Assembly: GCA_963734495.1 (NCBI GenBank)
Contig: CAVTHK010000007.1
Coordinates: forward strand, 64,001 to 128,000
Reading direction: 5' to 3'
DNA length: 64,000 nucleotides
Source of the DNA: an uncultured Spirochaetota bacterium
Lineage (GTDB): Bacteria; Spirochaetota; Spirochaetia; SZUA-6; CAVTHK01
The notes below the pieces were generated by a model, which did not search any database, was not told the DNA's origin, and saw nothing but the letters and a program-made list of their open reading frames with translations. Position 1 is the first letter of the stretch. Every line of letters starts with the position of its first letter. Of the stretch, positions 25,956-61,329 are shown piece by piece. Both the position numbers and the translations under genes were made by a program.

Positions 25956-27178
25956 CGCAGCCCCACCCTGAACGCGACGAAGTCGATCAGCACTCCGCCG
26001 AGCGCCCCGCCCCACCACGGCTTGTAGAAGTAGCCGCCGCTCCGCTGGCCGTCGACGGTGATCGTGGCCTCGACTGTCGTAGAGTCCGCGCCGTGGACGT
26101 CGTAGACGACCGGGCCGTAGTCGGCGAACATCCGCGCACGCTTCGTCCCCTTGACCTCGACCCCGGCGGCCACGCGGTACGCGAATGCCGCGACGGGGTC
26201 CAGCGCTACGACGCGGTCCGTGTGCATGAGGCGTGCAGCGCCGGACGCGTCGACGTAGGGCCGCACGGCGGCGTCCGCGTCGAGAGGGGTGTAGCCGAAG
26301 CCGGCGACGAGCTCAGTGAGCGGAAGGTTCGCGGCGGTCTCGTCTTCGCCTTCGTTGCGGAGCCACGGGGCGAACACGTACGTGGTGAGCCCGAGGCGGA
26401 AATAGAACGGCCCGAGCAGCCTTCCCGCCGATGCACCCAGGTAGCTCAGGTTCAGGGTGTACCCTTCGAACAGCCAGCGAGGAGCCGGCGTCTGCGGGAC
26501 GCTGACCGTGCCGTCGGCGGCGGAGAGGTAGAGCTCCTCGCGCGCGGGCAGGTCTCCGTCCCGCAGCGCCTCGATCCGGTAGAACCCGGGCCTGACCACG
26601 GCCACGCGGCCCGTCCCGTCGGGACCGATCTGCACCGGCTTTTCCGCCAGGCCCTCCACGGCCGTTCCCGGCAGCGCCTCCACGGCGATCTCCGCGGCGC
26701 TGGCCACCGGCTCCCCCGCTTCTCCGCCCGCGAACTGCGCCGCCACCGCGGCCGCGAGACCGTCCCACGTCGCGACGTCGGCACCGGACAGGGCGGGCAC
26801 AGGGAAGGTCTTCGCGGCGACGAGCCTGCCGCTGCGGAGGTCCGCGCCGGTGACGGCGGCGCTCAGCCCCCCGCCGCCGCGCGAAACCGAAACGCGGACC
26901 CACGCATCCGCTCCCCGGCTCGACGCCTTGGCGCCGCGTTCCTCGTCGGACGCGGGCACCGCGAGCGTGTCGGATTCAACGACGGCGACGGACGCGCGCT
27001 GCAGCCGCGCGAGCAGCGTCTCGTAGAGGAAAACGAGGTCTTCCCGCGCCAGGGCCCCGGGCGGCGACGCCTCGAAGTACAGCATGACCCGCCGCCTGGC
27101 GTCCTGCTCCAGGGACCAGGCAAGAACGGCCGAGAGCGCGAGCAGGGCCCCGATCGCAACCCTTCTTCTCAATCTCAT
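25943..27178 (-). CDS. Exported protein, probable outer-membrane beta-barrel C-terminus
   Basis: Signal peptide; TGATG coupling with the upstream gene; alternating aromatic strands ending FRVGLRWYR. Confidence 0.7.
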   Translation of the reverse strand: MRLRRRVAIGALLALSAVLAWSLEQDARRRVMLYFEASPPGALAREDLVFLYETLLARLQRASVAVVESDTLAVPASDEERGAKASSRGADAWVRVSVSRGGGGLSAAVTGADLRSGRLVAAKTFPVPALSGADVATWDGLAAAVAAQFAGGEAGEPVASAAEIAVEALPGTAVEGLAEKPVQIGPDGTGRVAVVRPGFYRIEALRDGDLPAREELYLSAADGTVSVPQTPAPRWLFEGYTLNLSYLGASAGRLLGPFYFRLGLTTYVFAPWLRNEGEDETAANLPLTELVAGFGYTPLDADAAVRPYVDASGAARLMHTDRVVALDPVAAFAYRVAAGVEVKGTKRARMFADYGPVVYDVHGADSTTVEATITVDGQRSGGYFYKPWWGGALGGVLIDFVAFRVGLRWYR

Positions 27179-28389
27179 CAACGCCACTTGTACACCAGGC
27201 CGACGGACATGGGCGGTCCCATGTCCTGAATCTGGAGCCATCCCCGCGGGAGGAGGTCGGACGAGTCCTCGATGGCGTACTTGCCTTCGACGCGGAAGTA
27301 GACCGCCCATTTCCGCGTGTTCCACTCGAGCCACAAGTTCGCCGGGCTCACGTAGAGGTCGACTGCGTCGCCCGCGTCCCGCTCCGCGAAGATCGTGACG
27401 ATGCCGCCGAAGCCTGCCGCGAGGCCCACCCGGAAGGGCGAGTACGGGCCCAGGAAGAGGTAGCGGCCCACGAGGAAGCGGATGTCGTCGTGGAACACCG
27501 GCGAGGCCTCGGGCGCGAAGTTGCTCTGAAGGTAGAAGTAGCTGTCGCCGCTCACGAAGAGCCTGTCCGGCTCCAGATAGTAGCGCACGCCCAGGCCCAG
27601 GCCGACGATCTGTCCGGTCGTGTACACGGCCTCCGCGGCCCACCGGGTTTCGGGCCACATCGGGCCCAGCGCGGTTTCGCCGGCCCCGGGGGCCACGCGG
27701 ATCTTCTGGGAGCGGGGCTGGAACCCCGGCTTGCGGGTTTCCACCGTCAGCCGCAGACCGCCCGTGGCCGTCGGCAACACGGCCCGCCCCTGCGCGACGG
27801 TGGCGATCGGCCGGCCGCCGATGAGGACCTCGGCGCCTTCGTCCACGGACCGCAGCGTGAGGTCGTGCACCCTGGAGGCGAGCTCGGGCGGCACCGGCCC
27901 GGCTGCGGGCTCCACGAGCGAGAGCGCATCGACTACAGCGTCGTTGACGAGAATCGTGACGGCCAGGCCGGTGCGACCGCTGCGGACGGCCGAGGCGATC
28001 AGCCGGTCGTCCTTCGCGTCGTAGAGTCTGACCTCGAGGACGATGCGGTTGTCCTCTATGCGGTAGGAGCCGGTGATCGCCAGATCCGCGCCGAGGGCGC
28101 GCGCCACAGCGACCGCCTTCGGCCCGAACACGAGGTCCCCGGCCGGGATCCCGAGGCGCGCCCTGGCCTGCTCCCAGAGCGCGGGCTCCACGACGCGCAG
28201 CCCGGCGTTCGACGCCTCGACGTTCAGCGCCTCGGCGAGGATCCGCCCGTATTGCTCTTCGGCCCCACCCGGCGACAGGTTCGCTGCGGTCAACACCACC
28301 GCGGTGCGCCCGGCACCCGGCTGTTGCTGAGCGGCCGCGCATGCGGCGGCGGCAAGCAGCAGACAGAGACCAACCGGTAAGCGGATGAT
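27178..28389 (-). CDS. Exported protein with TolB-N/CsgG-like N-domain, PEGA-like domain and probable beta-barrel (likely ATC start)
   Basis: ALGADLAITGSY...LEVRLYD; GAEVLIGG; ends SVGLVYKWR; SD GGGAGG before ATC ATC. Confidence 0.7.
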   Translation of the reverse strand: MIRLPVGLCLLLAAAACAAAQQQPGAGRTAVVLTAANLSPGGAEEQYGRILAEALNVEASNAGLRVVEPALWEQARARLGIPAGDLVFGPKAVAVARALGADLAITGSYRIEDNRIVLEVRLYDAKDDRLIASAVRSGRTGLAVTILVNDAVVDALSLVEPAAGPVPPELASRVHDLTLRSVDEGAEVLIGGRPIATVAQGRAVLPTATGGLRLTVETRKPGFQPRSQKIRVAPGAGETALGPMWPETRWAAEAVYTTGQIVGLGLGVRYYLEPDRLFVSGDSYFYLQSNFAPEASPVFHDDIRFLVGRYLFLGPYSPFRVGLAAGFGGIVTIFAERDAGDAVDLYVSPANLWLEWNTRKWAVYFRVEGKYAIEDSSDLLPRGWLQIQDMGPPMSVGLVYKWR

Positions 28390-28425
28390 GCACCCTCCCT
28401 TGCGGTCCCCTGTCGCCGTCGGGCT

Positions 28426-28663
28426 GAGCCATCCGTGGCTCTTGCCCACGCGGTCGTACATCTCCGGCGAGTACGCACCCCCTCGCTGCGCTCGGGGCCT
28501 TCGGGGACCAGGGCGCATGTACTCGCGTGGGCAAGCCCATCCATGGCCGGCCTTGCCTGGCGCTATCGTACGTCCATGTACAGCGCCGGGCTGAGCCGTC
28601 CATGGCTCTTGGCCGGCGCTATTGTACATCCGTGTACGCGCCGGCCTGTGGCATCCCTGCCAC
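28426..28663 (-). repeat. Array of six ANGGA-loop hairpins (CsrA-site-like or REP-like)
   Basis: Minus-strand hairpins GTGGCAGGGATGCCAC, GTACACGGATGTAC, GAGCCATGGACGGCTC, GTACATGGACGTAC, CCATGGATGG, GAGCCACGGATGGCTC. Confidence 0.85.
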
Positions 28664-28692
28664 TTGCAAACCCTCGGAAGTGTATATATCAT
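28664..28692 (+). promoter_or_regulatory. Sigma70-type promoter for the TPR-greA-VWA operon
   Basis: TTGCAA-N17-TATCAT in an AT-rich patch. Confidence 0.55.
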
Positions 28693-28826
28693 CAACTTGG
28701 ACTAAATCAAGCTCGCAACAAGAGCTATGTGTACGGGAGAACAGCGGGCCAGCAGCTCTCGGCGATGGCGACCCTCCTGGCGCGGCGCCGGGGAGCGTTC
28801 GCCTGTCGACGCCAGTGTGTTCGGCG

Positions 28827-29777
28827 ATGGAAGAGAAGCAGCTGACCTTCAAGGAAGACGAGATCTCGCAGATGCTCAATCACGCCTTCGACCTGTTCCG
28901 GGAAGGGCGCTTCCCCGAAGCGGCCTCCCAGCTCGAGAAGGTGCTGCGCATCGACTTCGACTACCCTGACGTCACCGCCTCTCTCAAGTGCGCCAACTTC
29001 TGGCGCGAAAGGCAGGAGCAGCTCGCCACCATCGGAGAGCCCTACGAGCGGGGCGAGCTCCTGCTCGGAGAGTGGCGTCATTTCGTCGACTTCGTGCAGC
29101 GGATCGGCGGGGTCTCGGAAAAGGGCCTGTTCAGCGTGAGGCAGTACGTGTTCGGCACGGCGCTCGCGGCCTACCGCGGCCTCGCCGAGCAAGGCGGGTA
29201 CGACGCGGACCTGCTGCTGCGGATCGGGCGCTGCTACAAGGAGCTGGGGAGCTACGACCTCGCGATCGAGAGCCTGGAAAAGGCCAATCAGATGAAGAAT
29301 GGCGTCCCGTCGGTCCTCGCGGAGCTGGCGGACTGCTACGCCCTCGTGGGAGAGACGAGGTCCAGCAAGATCTTCTTCCGCGAGGCGTTCTTCCTGGGCG
29401 CCCGCGAGATCGATCTCTCGACGCTGGAGTCCGGCATGATCCAGAGGCTCGTGCAGCGGCTTCGGGGGATGGACCTGAGCGAGTCGGAAGTGCGCGAATG
29501 GGTCCCGGTCTACGGCACGGTGTACGGCGTGCTGAACGTCAAGCGGGAGCTGCGGCCGCTCGAATACGGCAAGCTCAAGCAGTCGATCTTCCGCATGGAG
29601 AACCAGCTCGAGACCGACAGGCAGGAGCGCGATCTGCTGGTGCCGCGCCTGCTGAACCATTACTTCTGGCTGATCGACCATTACGCGAGCACGGGTGAGG
29701 AGCGCGCACACGTCGAGGAGGTCCTCACCAGGGTAAAGCGCCTCGACCCAGCGATCTACAGGGAATACACGCGATAG
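28827..29777 (+). CDS. TPR protein upstream of greA
   Basis: ATG 28827; TPR motifs (LLRIGRCYKELGSYDLAIESLEKA). Confidence 0.85.
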   Translation: MEEKQLTFKEDEISQMLNHAFDLFREGRFPEAASQLEKVLRIDFDYPDVTASLKCANFWRERQEQLATIGEPYERGELLLGEWRHFVDFVQRIGGVSEKGLFSVRQYVFGTALAAYRGLAEQGGYDADLLLRIGRCYKELGSYDLAIESLEKANQMKNGVPSVLAELADCYALVGETRSSKIFFREAFFLGAREIDLSTLESGMIQRLVQRLRGMDLSESEVREWVPVYGTVYGVLNVKRELRPLEYGKLKQSIFRMENQLETDRQERDLLVPRLLNHYFWLIDHYASTGEERAHVEEVLTRVKRLDPAIYREYTR

Positions 29778-29795
29778 AAGCGTCAGAGGGAGAGT

Positions 29796-32495
29796 GTGAT
29801 GCCGGAGAACCTGGTAAAGAGCGTCAGCGACCTGTTGAACGAGGAAAAGTGGACCCGGGCGACGCTGAACAGTTACTCGATCAGCAACTTCAAGGAGCTC
29901 GACGAGACCATCGCGGAGGTGCGCAAGGCGGAGCTGGACTCGGAGATCAAGGATCTCGCCGAGGAGCACCTCAAGCACTCCAAGAACAGCATCATCGCGC
30001 TGTACCTCGCAGGGATCATCAGCCTCCGCAGGCAGCAGGTTGACGATTCGCACCTCGTCGGCCTCATCAACATCTTCACCGACAACCACAAGTGGTCGAT
30101 CGTGGAGTACCTCTGCCAGAGGATCCTCGAGTTCGGCGAGAACAAGTACGCGCTGCGCACGCTGGCCGACTGCTACGAGAACGAGAACGAGCAGCCCAAG
30201 AAGCTGGAGATCTGGGAGCGGCTCATCCGCGTCGACTACGAGGAAGCGGACATCGTGCGCCATCTGGCCGAGCGCAAGGAGGACGAAGGCGCCCTCGAGC
30301 AGGCCGTCGACTATTACAGGAAGGCCCTCCACCGCTACATCAACAAGAAGATGTTCTCCCAGGTCAGGGACGTCTGGGCGAAGCTTCTGGAGCTCAACCC
30401 GAACGACATCGACTTTTACCAGAGGGCGGAGAAGAAGGTCGCCTCCGTGCTGAGCGGCGAGCGCGCCGCCACGCTGCTCGCCACCCTGTACCCCATCTAC
30501 GTCGCCAAGGAGGAGTGGGACACCGCGATCGGCCTGCTCAAGCGGCTGCTGGGCTACGACCCGAGGAACACGGAGGCCAGGGCGCAGATCATCGAGTGCT
30601 ACCGGGCCAAGTACCGCAGCCACAGCCAGCTCGAGGACTACATACGCCTCTCCAACCTGACGCAGTCGTGGCGGAACGTGCACGACGCCATCGCGGACTT
30701 CGAGAAGCACATCTCGTTCGACAAGGGCAACTTCGTCTACCACCGCTCCTGGGGAATCGGCAGAATCCGCGATATAAAGGATGATGTGTTCGTCATCGAC
30801 TTCGCGGCCAAGCGCGACCACCGCATGTCGCTCAAGATGGCCGTCGGCGCCCTGAGCATCCTCCCGGCCGAGCACGTCTGGGTGCTCAAGGCCACCATGA
30901 AGAAGGACGAGCTCAAGGAGAAGATCAAGACCGATCCCGCCTGGGCACTGAAGACGCTGATCCGCAGCTTCGACAACGCGGCCGACATGAAGCGGATCAA
31001 GGCCGAGATCGTCCCCGACGTGCTCACCGCCTCGGAGTGGACCCGCTGGAACAACGACGCCCGGCAGGTGCTCAAGGCCGACCCCGCGTTCGGCAACCTG
31101 GCGGACCGCAAGGACCATTTCGTCGTGCGCGATTCGCCCATCACCTTCGAAGAAAAGACGTTCAACCGGTTCAAGGCGGAGAACAGCTTCTTCGACCGCG
31201 TGCAGGCCATCCGCGACTTCCTCGAGGAGGTCGAGCCCGACAGCGAGTACTTCGAGGAGATGTTCTCCTATTTCAACGGCTTCCTCAAATCGTTCACGAC
31301 CGTCAACGAGACAACCTTCTGCAGCTACCTGCTGGTCCAGCGCATCGTCGCCCGGTTCCCCTACCTCAACCAGAGCCTCGGGTTCGGCTTCGAGGAGCTC
31401 TACCGGCAGGTGGAGGACGTCCCCGCCCTGTTCGCGCGCATCGAGGACGTCGAGCTCCAGCGCGAGTTCCTCCGCAGCGTCGAGCGGATGACGGACGACT
31501 GGGCCGGGATCTTCGCGCGGCTGTTCCGGGGGGCGCCGACGCGCTACATCATCGACGAGCTGGTCGCCCACGACAAGGTCGACACGATCCGCGAGCTCTT
31601 CGCAGGCAGCCTCGAGCAGTACCGCGACCAGCGCGAAAGCTTCGTCTGGCTCGTCCGCAACGTGCTCAGTGAGAGCTGGTTCCAGACGTTCGGGGCGTCC
31701 ATGGAGAAGATCTACATCGCGTCCATCCACCTCCTGGACATCACCTTCCGCGAGATCGAGAACCGGCGCGAGGTCGCCGCCAACAGGAAGCTCAACAAGC
31801 AGATCCAGGACTTCCTCTTCAGGGAGGAGCGGCTTCTCGCGTTTCTCCTCGACGCGGACCAGGATTCCATCTCGCGGCTCTACACGCTCGTCGAGGACGT
31901 CAAGGATCTCGACCCGTCCATCAAGATCCGGCTCAAGCAGCGGATCAAGGAGAAGCACCCGGCCTTCAAGTTCTTCGGCGAGACGCCGGAGGCCCCGGAG
32001 TCGGTGGCAGGCCGCCTGCTCGTGACGCGCAGCGGCTACGAAGCCAAGCAGAGGGCGCTCAGGCACCTGCTCGAGGTCGAAGTGCCCCTCAACTCGCGGG
32101 AGATCGGCGCGGCCCTCGCCAAGGGCGACCTGCGTGAGAACGCCGAGTACAAGGCCGCCCTGGAAAAGCAGGACATGCTGAATGCGTCGGCGGCGAAGCT
32201 CCAGACCGAGCTGCAGAGCGCGCAGATGTTCGACCACGCCCAGGTGGACGTGACCTCCGTGTCCTTCGGCACCCGGGTCCTCCTGCACGACCTGAGCACA
32301 AACGCCGAGGAGGAATACACCATCCTCGGGCCCTGGGAGTCGGACCCCAACCGCAAGGTGATCTCGTACCTGTCGCCCCTGGGCAGCCGCCTCTACAGCC
32401 ACAAGCCGGGCGACCAGCTGAGCTTTACCATCAACGAGAAGGAGTACCAGTACAAGATCGACCGCATCGAACCTGTACCCGCGGAGATGTTATGA
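29796..32495 (+). CDS. greA: Large spirochete-type transcription elongation factor GreA with N-terminal TPR region
   Basis: C-terminal GDLRENAEYKAA, ILGPWE, ISYLSPLG; N-terminal EEKWTRATL. Confidence 0.93.
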   Translation: MMPENLVKSVSDLLNEEKWTRATLNSYSISNFKELDETIAEVRKAELDSEIKDLAEEHLKHSKNSIIALYLAGIISLRRQQVDDSHLVGLINIFTDNHKWSIVEYLCQRILEFGENKYALRTLADCYENENEQPKKLEIWERLIRVDYEEADIVRHLAERKEDEGALEQAVDYYRKALHRYINKKMFSQVRDVWAKLLELNPNDIDFYQRAEKKVASVLSGERAATLLATLYPIYVAKEEWDTAIGLLKRLLGYDPRNTEARAQIIECYRAKYRSHSQLEDYIRLSNLTQSWRNVHDAIADFEKHISFDKGNFVYHRSWGIGRIRDIKDDVFVIDFAAKRDHRMSLKMAVGALSILPAEHVWVLKATMKKDELKEKIKTDPAWALKTLIRSFDNAADMKRIKAEIVPDVLTASEWTRWNNDARQVLKADPAFGNLADRKDHFVVRDSPITFEEKTFNRFKAENSFFDRVQAIRDFLEEVEPDSEYFEEMFSYFNGFLKSFTTVNETTFCSYLLVQRIVARFPYLNQSLGFGFEELYRQVEDVPALFARIEDVELQREFLRSVERMTDDWAGIFARLFRGAPTRYIIDELVAHDKVDTIRELFAGSLEQYRDQRESFVWLVRNVLSESWFQTFGASMEKIYIASIHLLDITFREIENRREVAANRKLNKQIQDFLFREERLLAFLLDADQDSISRLYTLVEDVKDLDPSIKIRLKQRIKEKHPAFKFFGETPEAPESVAGRLLVTRSGYEAKQRALRHLLEVEVPLNSREIGAALAKGDLRENAEYKAALEKQDMLNASAAKLQTELQSAQMFDHAQVDVTSVSFGTRVLLHDLSTNAEEEYTILGPWESDPNRKVISYLSPLGSRLYSHKPGDQLSFTINEKEYQYKIDRIEPVPAEML

Positions 32496-39648: not shown

Positions 39649-39785
39649 CATCCTTGACACGGGAACATCCCTGTTCCAGCCCCGCACCAACGCCATCCAT
39701 GGCTGTGCGGGGCAAGAACATCCCTGTTCCAGCCCCGCACCAACGCCATCCATGGCTGTGCGGGGCAAGAACATCCCTGTTCTTG
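39649..39785 (-). repeat. 53-bp tandem repeat (about 2.3 copies) of ANGGA-loop hairpins
   Basis: GAACATCCCTGTTC at 39663, 39716 and 39769; GCCATCCATGGC nested in CCCCGCAC/GTGCGGGG stems twice. Confidence 0.92.
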
Positions 39786-39812
39786 ACACCAAAAAGAAGC
39801 GCATGGTACGTT
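39783..39812 (+). promoter_or_regulatory. Sigma70-type promoter for yebC-ruvCAB-queA
   Basis: TTGACA-N18-TACGTT with an extended TG. Confidence 0.55.
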
Positions 39813-59650: not shown

Positions 59651-59694
59651 GGGCCCAGACACGGATGTCGGGCCCCGCGGGCGACAGGGATGTC
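59651..59694 (+). repeat. Two ANGGA-loop hairpins
   Basis: GACACGGATGTC (59658-59669) and GACAGGGATGTC (59683-59694). Confidence 0.8.
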
Positions 59695-61329
59695 ATAGCC
59701 CACGGGACCCGCCGCGCCCGGCCAGCTTCCGGGCCCCCGACAGCGCGAGGCAGCCCAGGACGATCGCCACGATGGCTGCGAGCGATACCTGAGCGAGCCA
59801 GTCGCCGTAGCGGGTGTAGGGCGTGACGACCCCGCGGACGATCGGCACCTCGCCAATGAGGTACCCTTCGACGAAGGGGGAAAGCATGTTGAGGATGCGT
59901 CCGTTGGGGTCGACGATCACCGTCATGCCGCCGTTGGTGCTGCGCACCAGCGAGCGCCGGTTCTCCACCGTCGCGGAAGACTCCCATGGCCATGTGCTGC
60001 ATCTCGGCTGCGACCGACCCCGCCCACGAGTCGTTGGTCATGTTGACCAGCACGTCGGCGCCGCGGCTGACGAACAGCCGGCCCAGGTAGCCGAAGGTGT
60101 CCTCGAAGCAGATGGGCGTCGAGAAGCGGACGCCTTTGTCCTCGTACACGACCGGGACGGTTCCCTTGCTCATAGAAGTGGATGTCGAACTTCTGCAGCA
60201 GGTCGTACATCCACTGGAGGACGCCGTGGAACGGGAAATGCTCGCTGAAAGGCACGAGGCGCAGCTTCCGATAGGTGTCGACGATCTCGCGGTCGCGGTA
60301 GAGGAGCGTCGCGTTGTAGTCGACGCGCACCTCCTCGCCGGTGGGCAGCACGCGTCTTCTGCCCGTCGTTGTTCCCGATGACGTAGCCGACCTTCTGCCC
60401 GTCGAGGAACTCCCGAAGGCGCCGCACGAGCTTGTACAGATCCTCATCCGTCCGGTACCGGGTGTGCCAGTCGATGCTCGGCACGAACGAGGTCTCCGAC
60501 CAGATGATGATCTCGGGATCGTGCTGCATCGCGGCCTCGCTCTGTCGAACGAGCGCCTCGAGCGAGGCCCTGTACGCCACGTAGCCTCCGCGCCACGGGT
60601 CGACGTTCTGCTGGACGAGCGCGACCTTCCATTCGCGCAGCCCGGCGGTCTCGACGGGGCTGCGGAATCCGTAGACCAGCGCGGCGGCGAAGGCCGCGGC
60701 GTAGACCGCGATTGCGGGCAGCCGCGCCCGCAGGAACGGCGCCGCCCCCGAGAGTCCGTCGCGGACGGCGTTCCCGAGCAGCGCCGACGGGAAGACGACG
60801 AGCAGCGAGACGGCCCAGACCCCGGCCAGGCTCGCGACCTGGATCAACGGGATGAAGAGGTACTGGGAGTAGCCGAGGATGCCGTAGGGGTAGCCGAGGT
60901 ACCCGAGCGTCTTGACGTACTCGTAGCCGATCCAGGCGACGATCTGCAGAAGCCAGCCCCAACGGGGGAACCGGCTGTCGACCAGCTTGAGGACCGGGAA
61001 CAGCACGAAGAAATGCGCCGCGTAGATGAGGGGCACGACCACAAGGCCGAGCGGGTGCCACGTGGCCAGCCAGAAATCGAACAGGGCGTAGCTCACGAAG
61101 CCATAGAGCGGCCCGTAGGCGAACACCCTCGCCCACGAAGCGCGGTGAACCACGACGAAGACCGGCGCCACGCTCACGAACGCCAGCGGGAACCAGCCCC
61201 ATTTGGACAGGAAGCTCGGGAAGGACAGCGCGAACAGGAGCGCCGACAGACCGAGGAGGCCGATCTCCGCGAGGGTGCGGCGCGGCCGGCCGGTCTCGAC
61301 CGCCCCGGAGGCAGGGCGGCCCGACCCAC
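59693..61329 (-). CDS. lnt: Apolipoprotein N-acyltransferase (copy 2; three or more apparent frameshifts)
   Basis: GYPYG, WSET, YRKLRLVPFSE, ICFED and ENRRSLVRSTNGG spread over four frames; start uncertain. Confidence 0.85.

Follow-up and report, generated by a model that had tools for sequence, protein, structure and literature searches.

The segment at 28426-28663 is one array of a dispersed, insertion-polymorphic family of structured repeats, an assignment we hold with high confidence. The part of the array that is conserved is the loop of its hairpins, which is identical in sequence to a high-affinity CsrA site. The fuller statement, which combines the repeat family with loading of CsrA onto the leader RNA that the array would form, we regard as evenly balanced. 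An initial annotation of this DNA had described six minus-strand hairpins that differ in their stems but share loops reading CA-NGGA-YG, and all six were recovered in 28426-28663 (Table 1), within a window of 64 kb that comprises the whole stretch of DNA analyzed. About 0.05 occurrences of CA-NGGA-YG would be expected by chance on one strand of 238 nt, based on 2057 occurrences on both strands of the 5.38-Mb genome.

Table 1. Coordinates of the array, its flanking elements, and two further arrays in the window
Feature	Position (nt)	Strand	Description
Hairpin 1	28648..28663	-	6-bp stem GTGGCA/TGCCAC, loop GGGA
Hairpin 2	28624-28637	-	Stem GTACA/TGTAC, loop CGGA
Outer stem around hairpin 2	28611..28646	-	28611-28619 with 28638-28646, 9 bp, 100% complementary
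Hairpin 3	28593..28608	-	Stem GAGCC/GGCTC, loop ATGGAC
Hairpin 4	28567-28582	-	Stem GTAC, loop ATGGAC
Outer stem around hairpin 4	28555..28591	-	Predicted fold and ensemble
Hairpin 5	Core ~28535-28550, whole 28530..28557	-	Imperfect; stem GCC/GGC, loop ATGGAT
Expanded-loop module	28441..28535	-	12-bp stem, 28441-28452 with 28524-28535, 100% complementary
Hairpin 6	28426..28441	-	6-bp stem GAGCCA/TGGCTC, loop CGGA
Shine-Dalgarno sequence	28393..28401	-	AAGGGAGGG; strong, contains GGA
Downstream gene	27178..28389	-	FlgO-domain lipoprotein, lipobox signal peptide
Promoter-like site TTGCAA-17-TATCAT	28664..28692	+	Promoter scan; serves the TPR and GreA-like genes
Candidate array-strand promoter TTGATT-16-TATATA	28683..28710	-	By eye, not by scan
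Second array	39658..39787	-	6 motif hairpins; abuts the -35 box of yebC
Mini-array	59652..59700	+	Two hairpins; ~25 nt from a TTGACA -35 box

Architecture of the array and its repeat family

The unit of the array is two small hairpins, and every second hairpin is carried on a longer outer stem. Three such longer stems had been proposed for this segment; two are fully complementary, and the third (approximately 28555-28591) is present in the predicted fold. Hairpin 1 follows directly after a GCAAG junction, and its GGA is unpaired with a probability of 1.00 in the ensemble of the leader. When the whole 302-nt leader is folded, GGA is unpaired with a probability close to 1 in four of the six hairpins (at 28656, 28631, 28575, and 28434). 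For the two hairpins that contain CCAUGG (28601 and 28542), the same ensemble predicts mutual pairing; the CCATGG palindrome of hairpin 3 is able to pair with hairpin 5 instead, and its GG is paired in the ensemble. The outer arms of hairpin 5 are GGCAAG and CTTGCC, and its positions 28530-28553 make up one row of the hairpin alignment. Compared with shuffled sequences, the leader folds with z = -5.65 on the GGA strand and z = -5.87 on the opposite strand; because both strands fold equally well, the fold energy confirms the palindromes and cannot choose the strand.

A smaller repeat lies inside the expanded-loop module, at approximately 28464-28516 on the minus strand, and consists of a hairpin CCCC…GGGG with the core GAGCGCAGCGA. 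A search of its own genome with blastn-short places matches to this mini-repeat on other contigs (C16:86540, C10:6445, and C8:13184). Some copies of the module elsewhere are without it, so that the mini-repeat resembles an insertion within an insertion.

Across the genome, hairpins with this loop are ordinary in number but exceptional in their clustering, and only the clustering sets them apart. Stem-flanked CA-NGGA-YG hairpins total 201, which ranks eighth of 64 loop triplets, with seven others as numerous or more so. Same-strand clusters, on the other hand, number 15 for GGA, of which 8 have three or more members, and only 0 to 2 for the other loop triplets, with the exception of CCC. We rejected the CCC clusters as a separate family, as they correspond to CAGGGATG of the same GGA arrays read on the complementary strand. 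Chains of the motif with a spacing of 18 to 40 nt are found 38 times (7 with three or more members), compared with 11 times for the reversed motif, none of which reaches three members. These counts were made genome-wide; gene calls from a GC3-based caller cover 64% of the genome, which is too sparse for an estimate of intergenic enrichment. Against its own genome, the array has only 8 short matches elsewhere by blastn-short. As only short modules are common to the arrays, the family is old and diverse and this array is no recent copy; membership in the family rests on architecture.

The proposal that the stems covary while the loop is kept is supported over 101 hairpins, which were drawn from this genome and from those of five relatives by the motif and the presence of a neighbor, irrespective of the stem. 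Flank cells are paired in 77.9% of cases compared with 57.9% after shuffling, a level that 0 of 500 shuffles reach, and 118 cells are changed on both sides compared with 53 in the shuffles. The covariation score is 0.42 compared with 0.05 to 0.08 for slid partners, although related copies inflate such figures. Nevertheless, both inner stem positions show four frequent pair types each. We found no strand asymmetry between G-U and A-C at the three inner flank pairs (17 G-U versus 25 A-C); flank pair 4, with 25 G-U versus 12 A-C, reflects a recurring junction sequence. Selection at the level of RNA or single-stranded DNA, as originally suggested, is thus borne out only in part: the loop is indeed kept on covarying stems, but the inner pairs lack the G-U/A-C asymmetry, so that the case for selection on RNA is carried by the loop.

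Placement of the arrays and turnover between congeners

The 16 arrays that we inspected in this genome begin at two types of anchor. In five, the array starts precisely with the upstream gene's stop codon, and that codon doubles as the 5' arm of the array's first hairpin (TGA-GCAC… in four cases and TAG-GGCC… in one). The other eleven, the array at 28426-28663 among them, open with GTCAAG or GCAAG, after which a hairpin follows. Read on the complementary strand, GTCAAG becomes CTTGAC, a -35 box, and in at least 8 of these 11 inspection reveals, beyond this box, a suitably spaced -10-like hexamer and the beginning of a gene on the opposite strand, with most promoter hexamers at the arrays read by eye. 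Some of the arrays that start at stop codons precede the promoter of the next gene (for example, C3:235700). By inspection, the arrays in tandem spacers are sense to the flanking genes in five cases and antisense in four, and the neighbors are functionally mixed, including mgtA, an SDR gene, ligA, and genes for an ABC ATPase and a cNMP-binding protein. The sister species (G001) and an array-bearing relative (G028) show both types of anchor as well. In the latter, the 3' end of a tRNA gene is immediately followed by one array, and another fills the spacer between tRNA genes on opposite strands. At C13:226271-226304 and upstream of it, a symmetric promoter surrounds ATTATAAT with good -35 boxes on both sides; in the direction of the array (C13:226304) it reads TTGTGA-17-TATAAT and in the other direction TTGAAC-17-TATAAT, which fits a bidirectional promoter.

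Two further arrays in the window illustrate the anchoring at -35 boxes. The array in the yebC spacer faces a small coiled-coil gene equipped with a separate promoter-like site, proximal to it and downstream of the array; lying upstream of that promoter, the array may perhaps be untranscribed. The -35 box next to the mini-array belongs to an opposite-strand response-regulator gene.

Comparison with the sister species, a congener, demonstrates that individual arrays come and go. Three sites (the yebC spacer, the end of a DUF503 gene, and that of a transglutaminase-like gene) hold an array in the genome under study and none in the sister species; the converse is seen at the end of an aminoacyl-tRNA-synthetase-like gene, where only the sister species has one. 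The empty yebC spacer of the sister species keeps its -35 box, and at the two sites anchored to a stop codon, that codon is native to both species. Since the empty sites already hold the -35 box or the Tyr-TGA gene end, arrays attach to preexisting sequence, and the attachment sequence resembles the junctions between units (CAAG, CTGAG, and TAG). The Tyr-TGA ends had also been considered as products of array insertion into TAA or TAG; this was rejected, as the empty sites in the sister species already end in Tyr-TGA. For TruA, the match in the sister species is too divergent to be informative, being only 39% identical and having another C-terminus.

The locus at 28426-28663 is itself part of this turnover. 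The sister species has kept its promoter block almost unchanged and has a lipoprotein that is 58% identical, but the leader there is approximately 120 nt shorter and is without clean motif hairpins. Upstream of orthologues and paralogues of the FlgO-domain lipoprotein in other genera and another family, an array was found at none of five loci.

The predicted leader of the FlgO-domain gene and a candidate role for CsrA

The array lies in a divergent intergenic region. A minus-strand open reading frame of 1225 amino acids upstream of it (28725-32402) was rejected as a gene, being antisense to real plus-strand genes: one for a TPR protein starting near 28827 and one for an 899-amino-acid protein with GreA/GreB domains. 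The latter (29796-32495, plus strand) consists of TPR-like repeats followed by complete N- and C-terminal GreA/GreB domains, an unusually long architecture for a Gre factor. The promoter-like site that serves these genes is the sole match of the promoter scan in 28000-29200, with 0.0 expected, and the array's outer edge is formed by its -35 box. In the other direction, the TATATA -10 box of the candidate array-strand promoter overlaps the plus-strand -10 box, and both its TTGATT and its TATATA are identical in the sister species. No terminator-like site was found in 28000-29200, including the stretch between the array and the Shine-Dalgarno sequence. Placed between this conserved bidirectional promoter block and the Shine-Dalgarno sequence, the array would be transcribed and would probably form most of a leader of about 290 nt.

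The downstream gene encodes a lipoprotein with a FlgO domain (Pfam PF17680, 31.3 bits compared with a cut-off of 22.6). It is without an ATG, GTG, or TTG at the proper position after its strong Shine-Dalgarno sequence. The start codon is probably ATC (28387-28389, minus strand), with ATT in the sister species, such that AUY is kept in two species; in both, the ATC or ATT is placed 4 to 7 nt past the Shine-Dalgarno sequence and is followed by the lipoprotein signal peptide. The GGA noted earlier within the Shine-Dalgarno sequence is confirmed and is a possible second CsrA site, with a probability of about 0.7 of being unpaired in the leader ensemble. The GGA of hairpin 6 (28434) lies 36 nt upstream of it (28398). 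This spacing is within bridging distance, and the pair of sites resembles the CsrA-repressed leaders of glgC in Escherichia coli, hag in Bacillus subtilis, and flaA/flaB in Campylobacter and spirochetes, in which a hairpin GGA is combined with a GGA in the Shine-Dalgarno sequence. The leader differs from that design in having six sites rather than one upstream site and in not being conserved among orthologues.

The likeness of the loops to a CsrA site had been claimed from the outset and is upheld by their match to the SELEX consensus RUACARGGAUGU, in which ACA and GGA are invariant, as given in passages of a published account (PMC7652899). The same passages describe the site as a hexaloop closed by AC/GU on stems of mostly four pairs or fewer (PMC7652899). 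Among 178 hairpins, A occupies position -1 in 43%, and U is found at position +1 in 43%. Both csrA and fliW, whose presence had been posed as a check, are found in the genome, adjacent and on the same contig, and the CsrA protein aligns over its full length, including the C-terminal extension, with the FliW-bound CsrA of Geobacillus (5dmb_D). In each of four flagellin leaders inspected (C4:6518, C15:6045, C7:319853, and C7:320942, two of which are near-identical copies), a GGA-loop hairpin lies 11 to 15 nt upstream of a Shine-Dalgarno sequence that carries GGA, a layout that matches the classic two-site design of CsrA targets. Of 41 relatives, 33 carry csrA, as do 387 of the 401 genomes examined across the phylum; it is so nearly universal that its co-occurrence with the arrays carries no weight; in one family (f7), neither csrA nor arrays are found in any of six genomes.

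Taken together with the array, these features suggest a mechanism in which the leader RNA would load several CsrA dimers, and the last hairpin, with the GGA-bearing Shine-Dalgarno sequence, would repress translation of the FlgO-like gene in the manner of hag and glgC. Arrays that are transcribed in the sense direction could together buffer free CsrA alongside FliW. Any such regulatory role would be a by-product of where the repeat has landed and not a conserved design of the operon.

Alternative readings and known systems

Two distinct pictures of CsrA control exist, with dedicated sRNA sponges as antagonists in the Gammaproteobacteria and the protein FliW in Bacillus, Campylobacter, and spirochetes. 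The array resembles CsrB, CsrC, and RsmX-Y-Z in presenting multiple GGA hairpin loops on one strand, here six, with four unpaired in the ensemble. The repeat of CsrB is close to CA(N)GGAUG. The six consensus sites on one strand, the candidate upstream promoter conserved in the sister species, the GGA in the Shine-Dalgarno sequence, and a downstream FlgO domain whose association with the flagellum fits the CsrA-FliW theme could each be expected of a dedicated CsrB/RsmZ-type sponge gene or of a conserved CsrA leader of the flgO-like operon, the two forms that the initial annotation had favored. We now consider this highly improbable, and the comparative data largely refute it. The array has no terminator of its own and runs into the Shine-Dalgarno sequence, no Rfam family reaches its gathering score anywhere in the 64-kb window, and the sister species keeps the promoter but not the hairpin content, all of which speak against a sponge gene. 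A conserved multisite leader is contradicted by the five array-free loci in other genera, and the existence of at least 15 other arrays with unrelated neighbors speaks against both forms. In contrast to a CsrB-type gene, which is conserved and single copy, the arrays are dispersed in many contexts, and their lineage carries fliW. Passages of PMC7652899 report that fliW is anticorrelated with BarA-UvrY, which drives sRNAs of the CsrB type.

The fallback offered at the time, a REP/MITE-like DNA repeat, came closer, given the dispersed copies and the filled and empty sites. In its strict form, the arrays would be selfish or neutral DNA whose loop is the recognition site of the copying process, with the likeness to a CsrA site a coincidence, and this we judge possible but somewhat unlikely. 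It is consistent with the mixed gene contexts of the dispersed copies, with orthologous sites filled and empty in both directions, with the absence of G-U/A-C asymmetry at the inner pairs, with the nearly even split of arrays in tandem spacers between sense and antisense, and with arrays flush with tRNA genes in the array-bearing relative. REP and BIME elements are likewise short, clustered extragenic palindromes that often lie right after stop codons and vary between relatives. However, REPs conserve the stem and vary the loop, whereas the arrays do the reverse and are arranged head to tail, not as inverted pairs. No match to the Y1/RAYT transposase (PF01797) was found in the genome under study (83% complete), in the sister species (99%), or in the array-bearing relative (97%), all rich in arrays. 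Conversely, all five genomes of family f3 have a Y1 transposase without clean arrays, the pattern matches in two of the five being other sequence; an association of the arrays with RAYT was rejected, as the transposase does not track them. Neither terminal inverted repeats nor target duplications, by which a MITE would be recognized, were found at the three filled/empty junction pairs inspected. Purely selfish spread is also difficult to reconcile with an 8-nt loop that is kept across families despite widely differing stems and GC content and that matches a known RNA-protein consensus at every base, as given in passages of PMC7652899.

The arrays might instead act as RNA punctuation independent of CsrA, stabilizing 3' ends, stopping read-through, or insulating genes, as described for REP/BIME. 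The very stable stems would suit such a function, as would the five arrays that start at an upstream stop codon, some of them followed by the promoter of the next gene, and the recurrence of stop-codon anchoring in both G001 and G028. We nevertheless consider it improbable. Punctuation leaves the invariant GGA and the closing C-G pair on changing stems unexplained, arrays also occupy 5' positions such as 28426-28663, and no T-tract terminators were found in 28000-29200.

Returning to a repeat family that loads leaders with CsrA, its broadest version holds that the repeat is a mobile cassette of high-affinity CsrA sites in spirochetes, in which FliW is regarded as the sole controller of CsrA. 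By landing at stop codons and promoter edges, the cassette would continually alter the set of mRNAs coupled to the CsrA-FliW flagellar checkpoint, and its many arrays would jointly act as a distributed RNA sponge for CsrA. We offer this version as a speculation that is more likely wrong than right by a wide measure. If true, it would add a layer of RNA antagonists to a FliW lineage, evolving by the spread of a repeat instead of by sRNA genes. If the arrays are transcribed and bound, then RNA titration could operate in FliW spirochetes, and the insertion of a repeat could be enough to alter membership in the regulon. Should CsrA not bind them, the family is still a trap for the prediction of sRNAs and regulons by counting GGA hairpins, as well as a clean case of a repeat in which the loop and not the stem is conserved. 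How such repeats spread can be approached through their precise attachment to stop codons and -35 boxes, together with the filled and empty sites in two congeners.

The closest described relative is the TwoAYGGAY RNA (Rfam RF01731, CsrB/Rsm clan CL00106), which is covered in two sources (PMC2864571; 10.64898/2026.09.22.753630). Its model scores 21.5 bits on the array at 28584-28638 compared with a gathering score of 43. Across the genome it gives five matches of 19.9 to 22.5 bits, all below threshold and all on arrays, and these are the only Rfam matches to arrays. The two systems share loops of the AYGGAY type, multiple copies, copy numbers that vary among close relatives, and an association with repeats, as far as the passages of these sources describe them. 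In Pseudomonas, according to passages of the more recent source, TwoAYGGAY is multicopy and repeat associated, with "proposed" Csr/Rsm loops and a spread resembling that of mobile elements, and the link between mobility and regulation is described there as unresolved (10.64898/2026.09.22.753630). TwoAYGGAY as described in these passages sets two hairpins on one basal stem, whereas the arrays run head to tail and alternate single hairpins with stem-enclosed ones; each outer stem of the array encloses one hairpin, with loops that fit AYGGAY. The hosts named in the passages are Pseudomonadota, Bacillota, and the human gut, compared with a spirochete with a FliW-type CsrA here. Anchoring at stop codons and -35 boxes is a feature of the arrays that is absent from the TwoAYGGAY passages of the two sources. 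In the main text of the more recent source, Spirochaetota are mentioned only for another system (10.64898/2026.09.22.753630). We found no published description of the spirochete family of GGA-loop arrays in a search that lay outside the preprint's supplementary TwoAYGGAY taxon tables.

The family extends well beyond this genus. A pattern of three motifs matches 18 of 41 relatives and 59 of 401 genomes of the phylum, with 14 matches in the genome under study compared with 0 for the backwards control and 12 in the array-bearing relative. Arrays with the loop on other stems are present in the sister species, and clean arrays of the same architecture occur in many spirochete families, on quite different stems that are either GC rich or AT rich. 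A scan of one genome per species yielded at least 120 loci, and 16 among the matches listed have three or more stem-flanked motif hairpins; these 16, among the matches listed, come from several phyla. Two genomes of another family (G012 and G018) carry unstructured tandem runs of ACGGATG-like words at a spacing of 8 to 10 nt and without hairpins, which are a different GGA-rich repeat.
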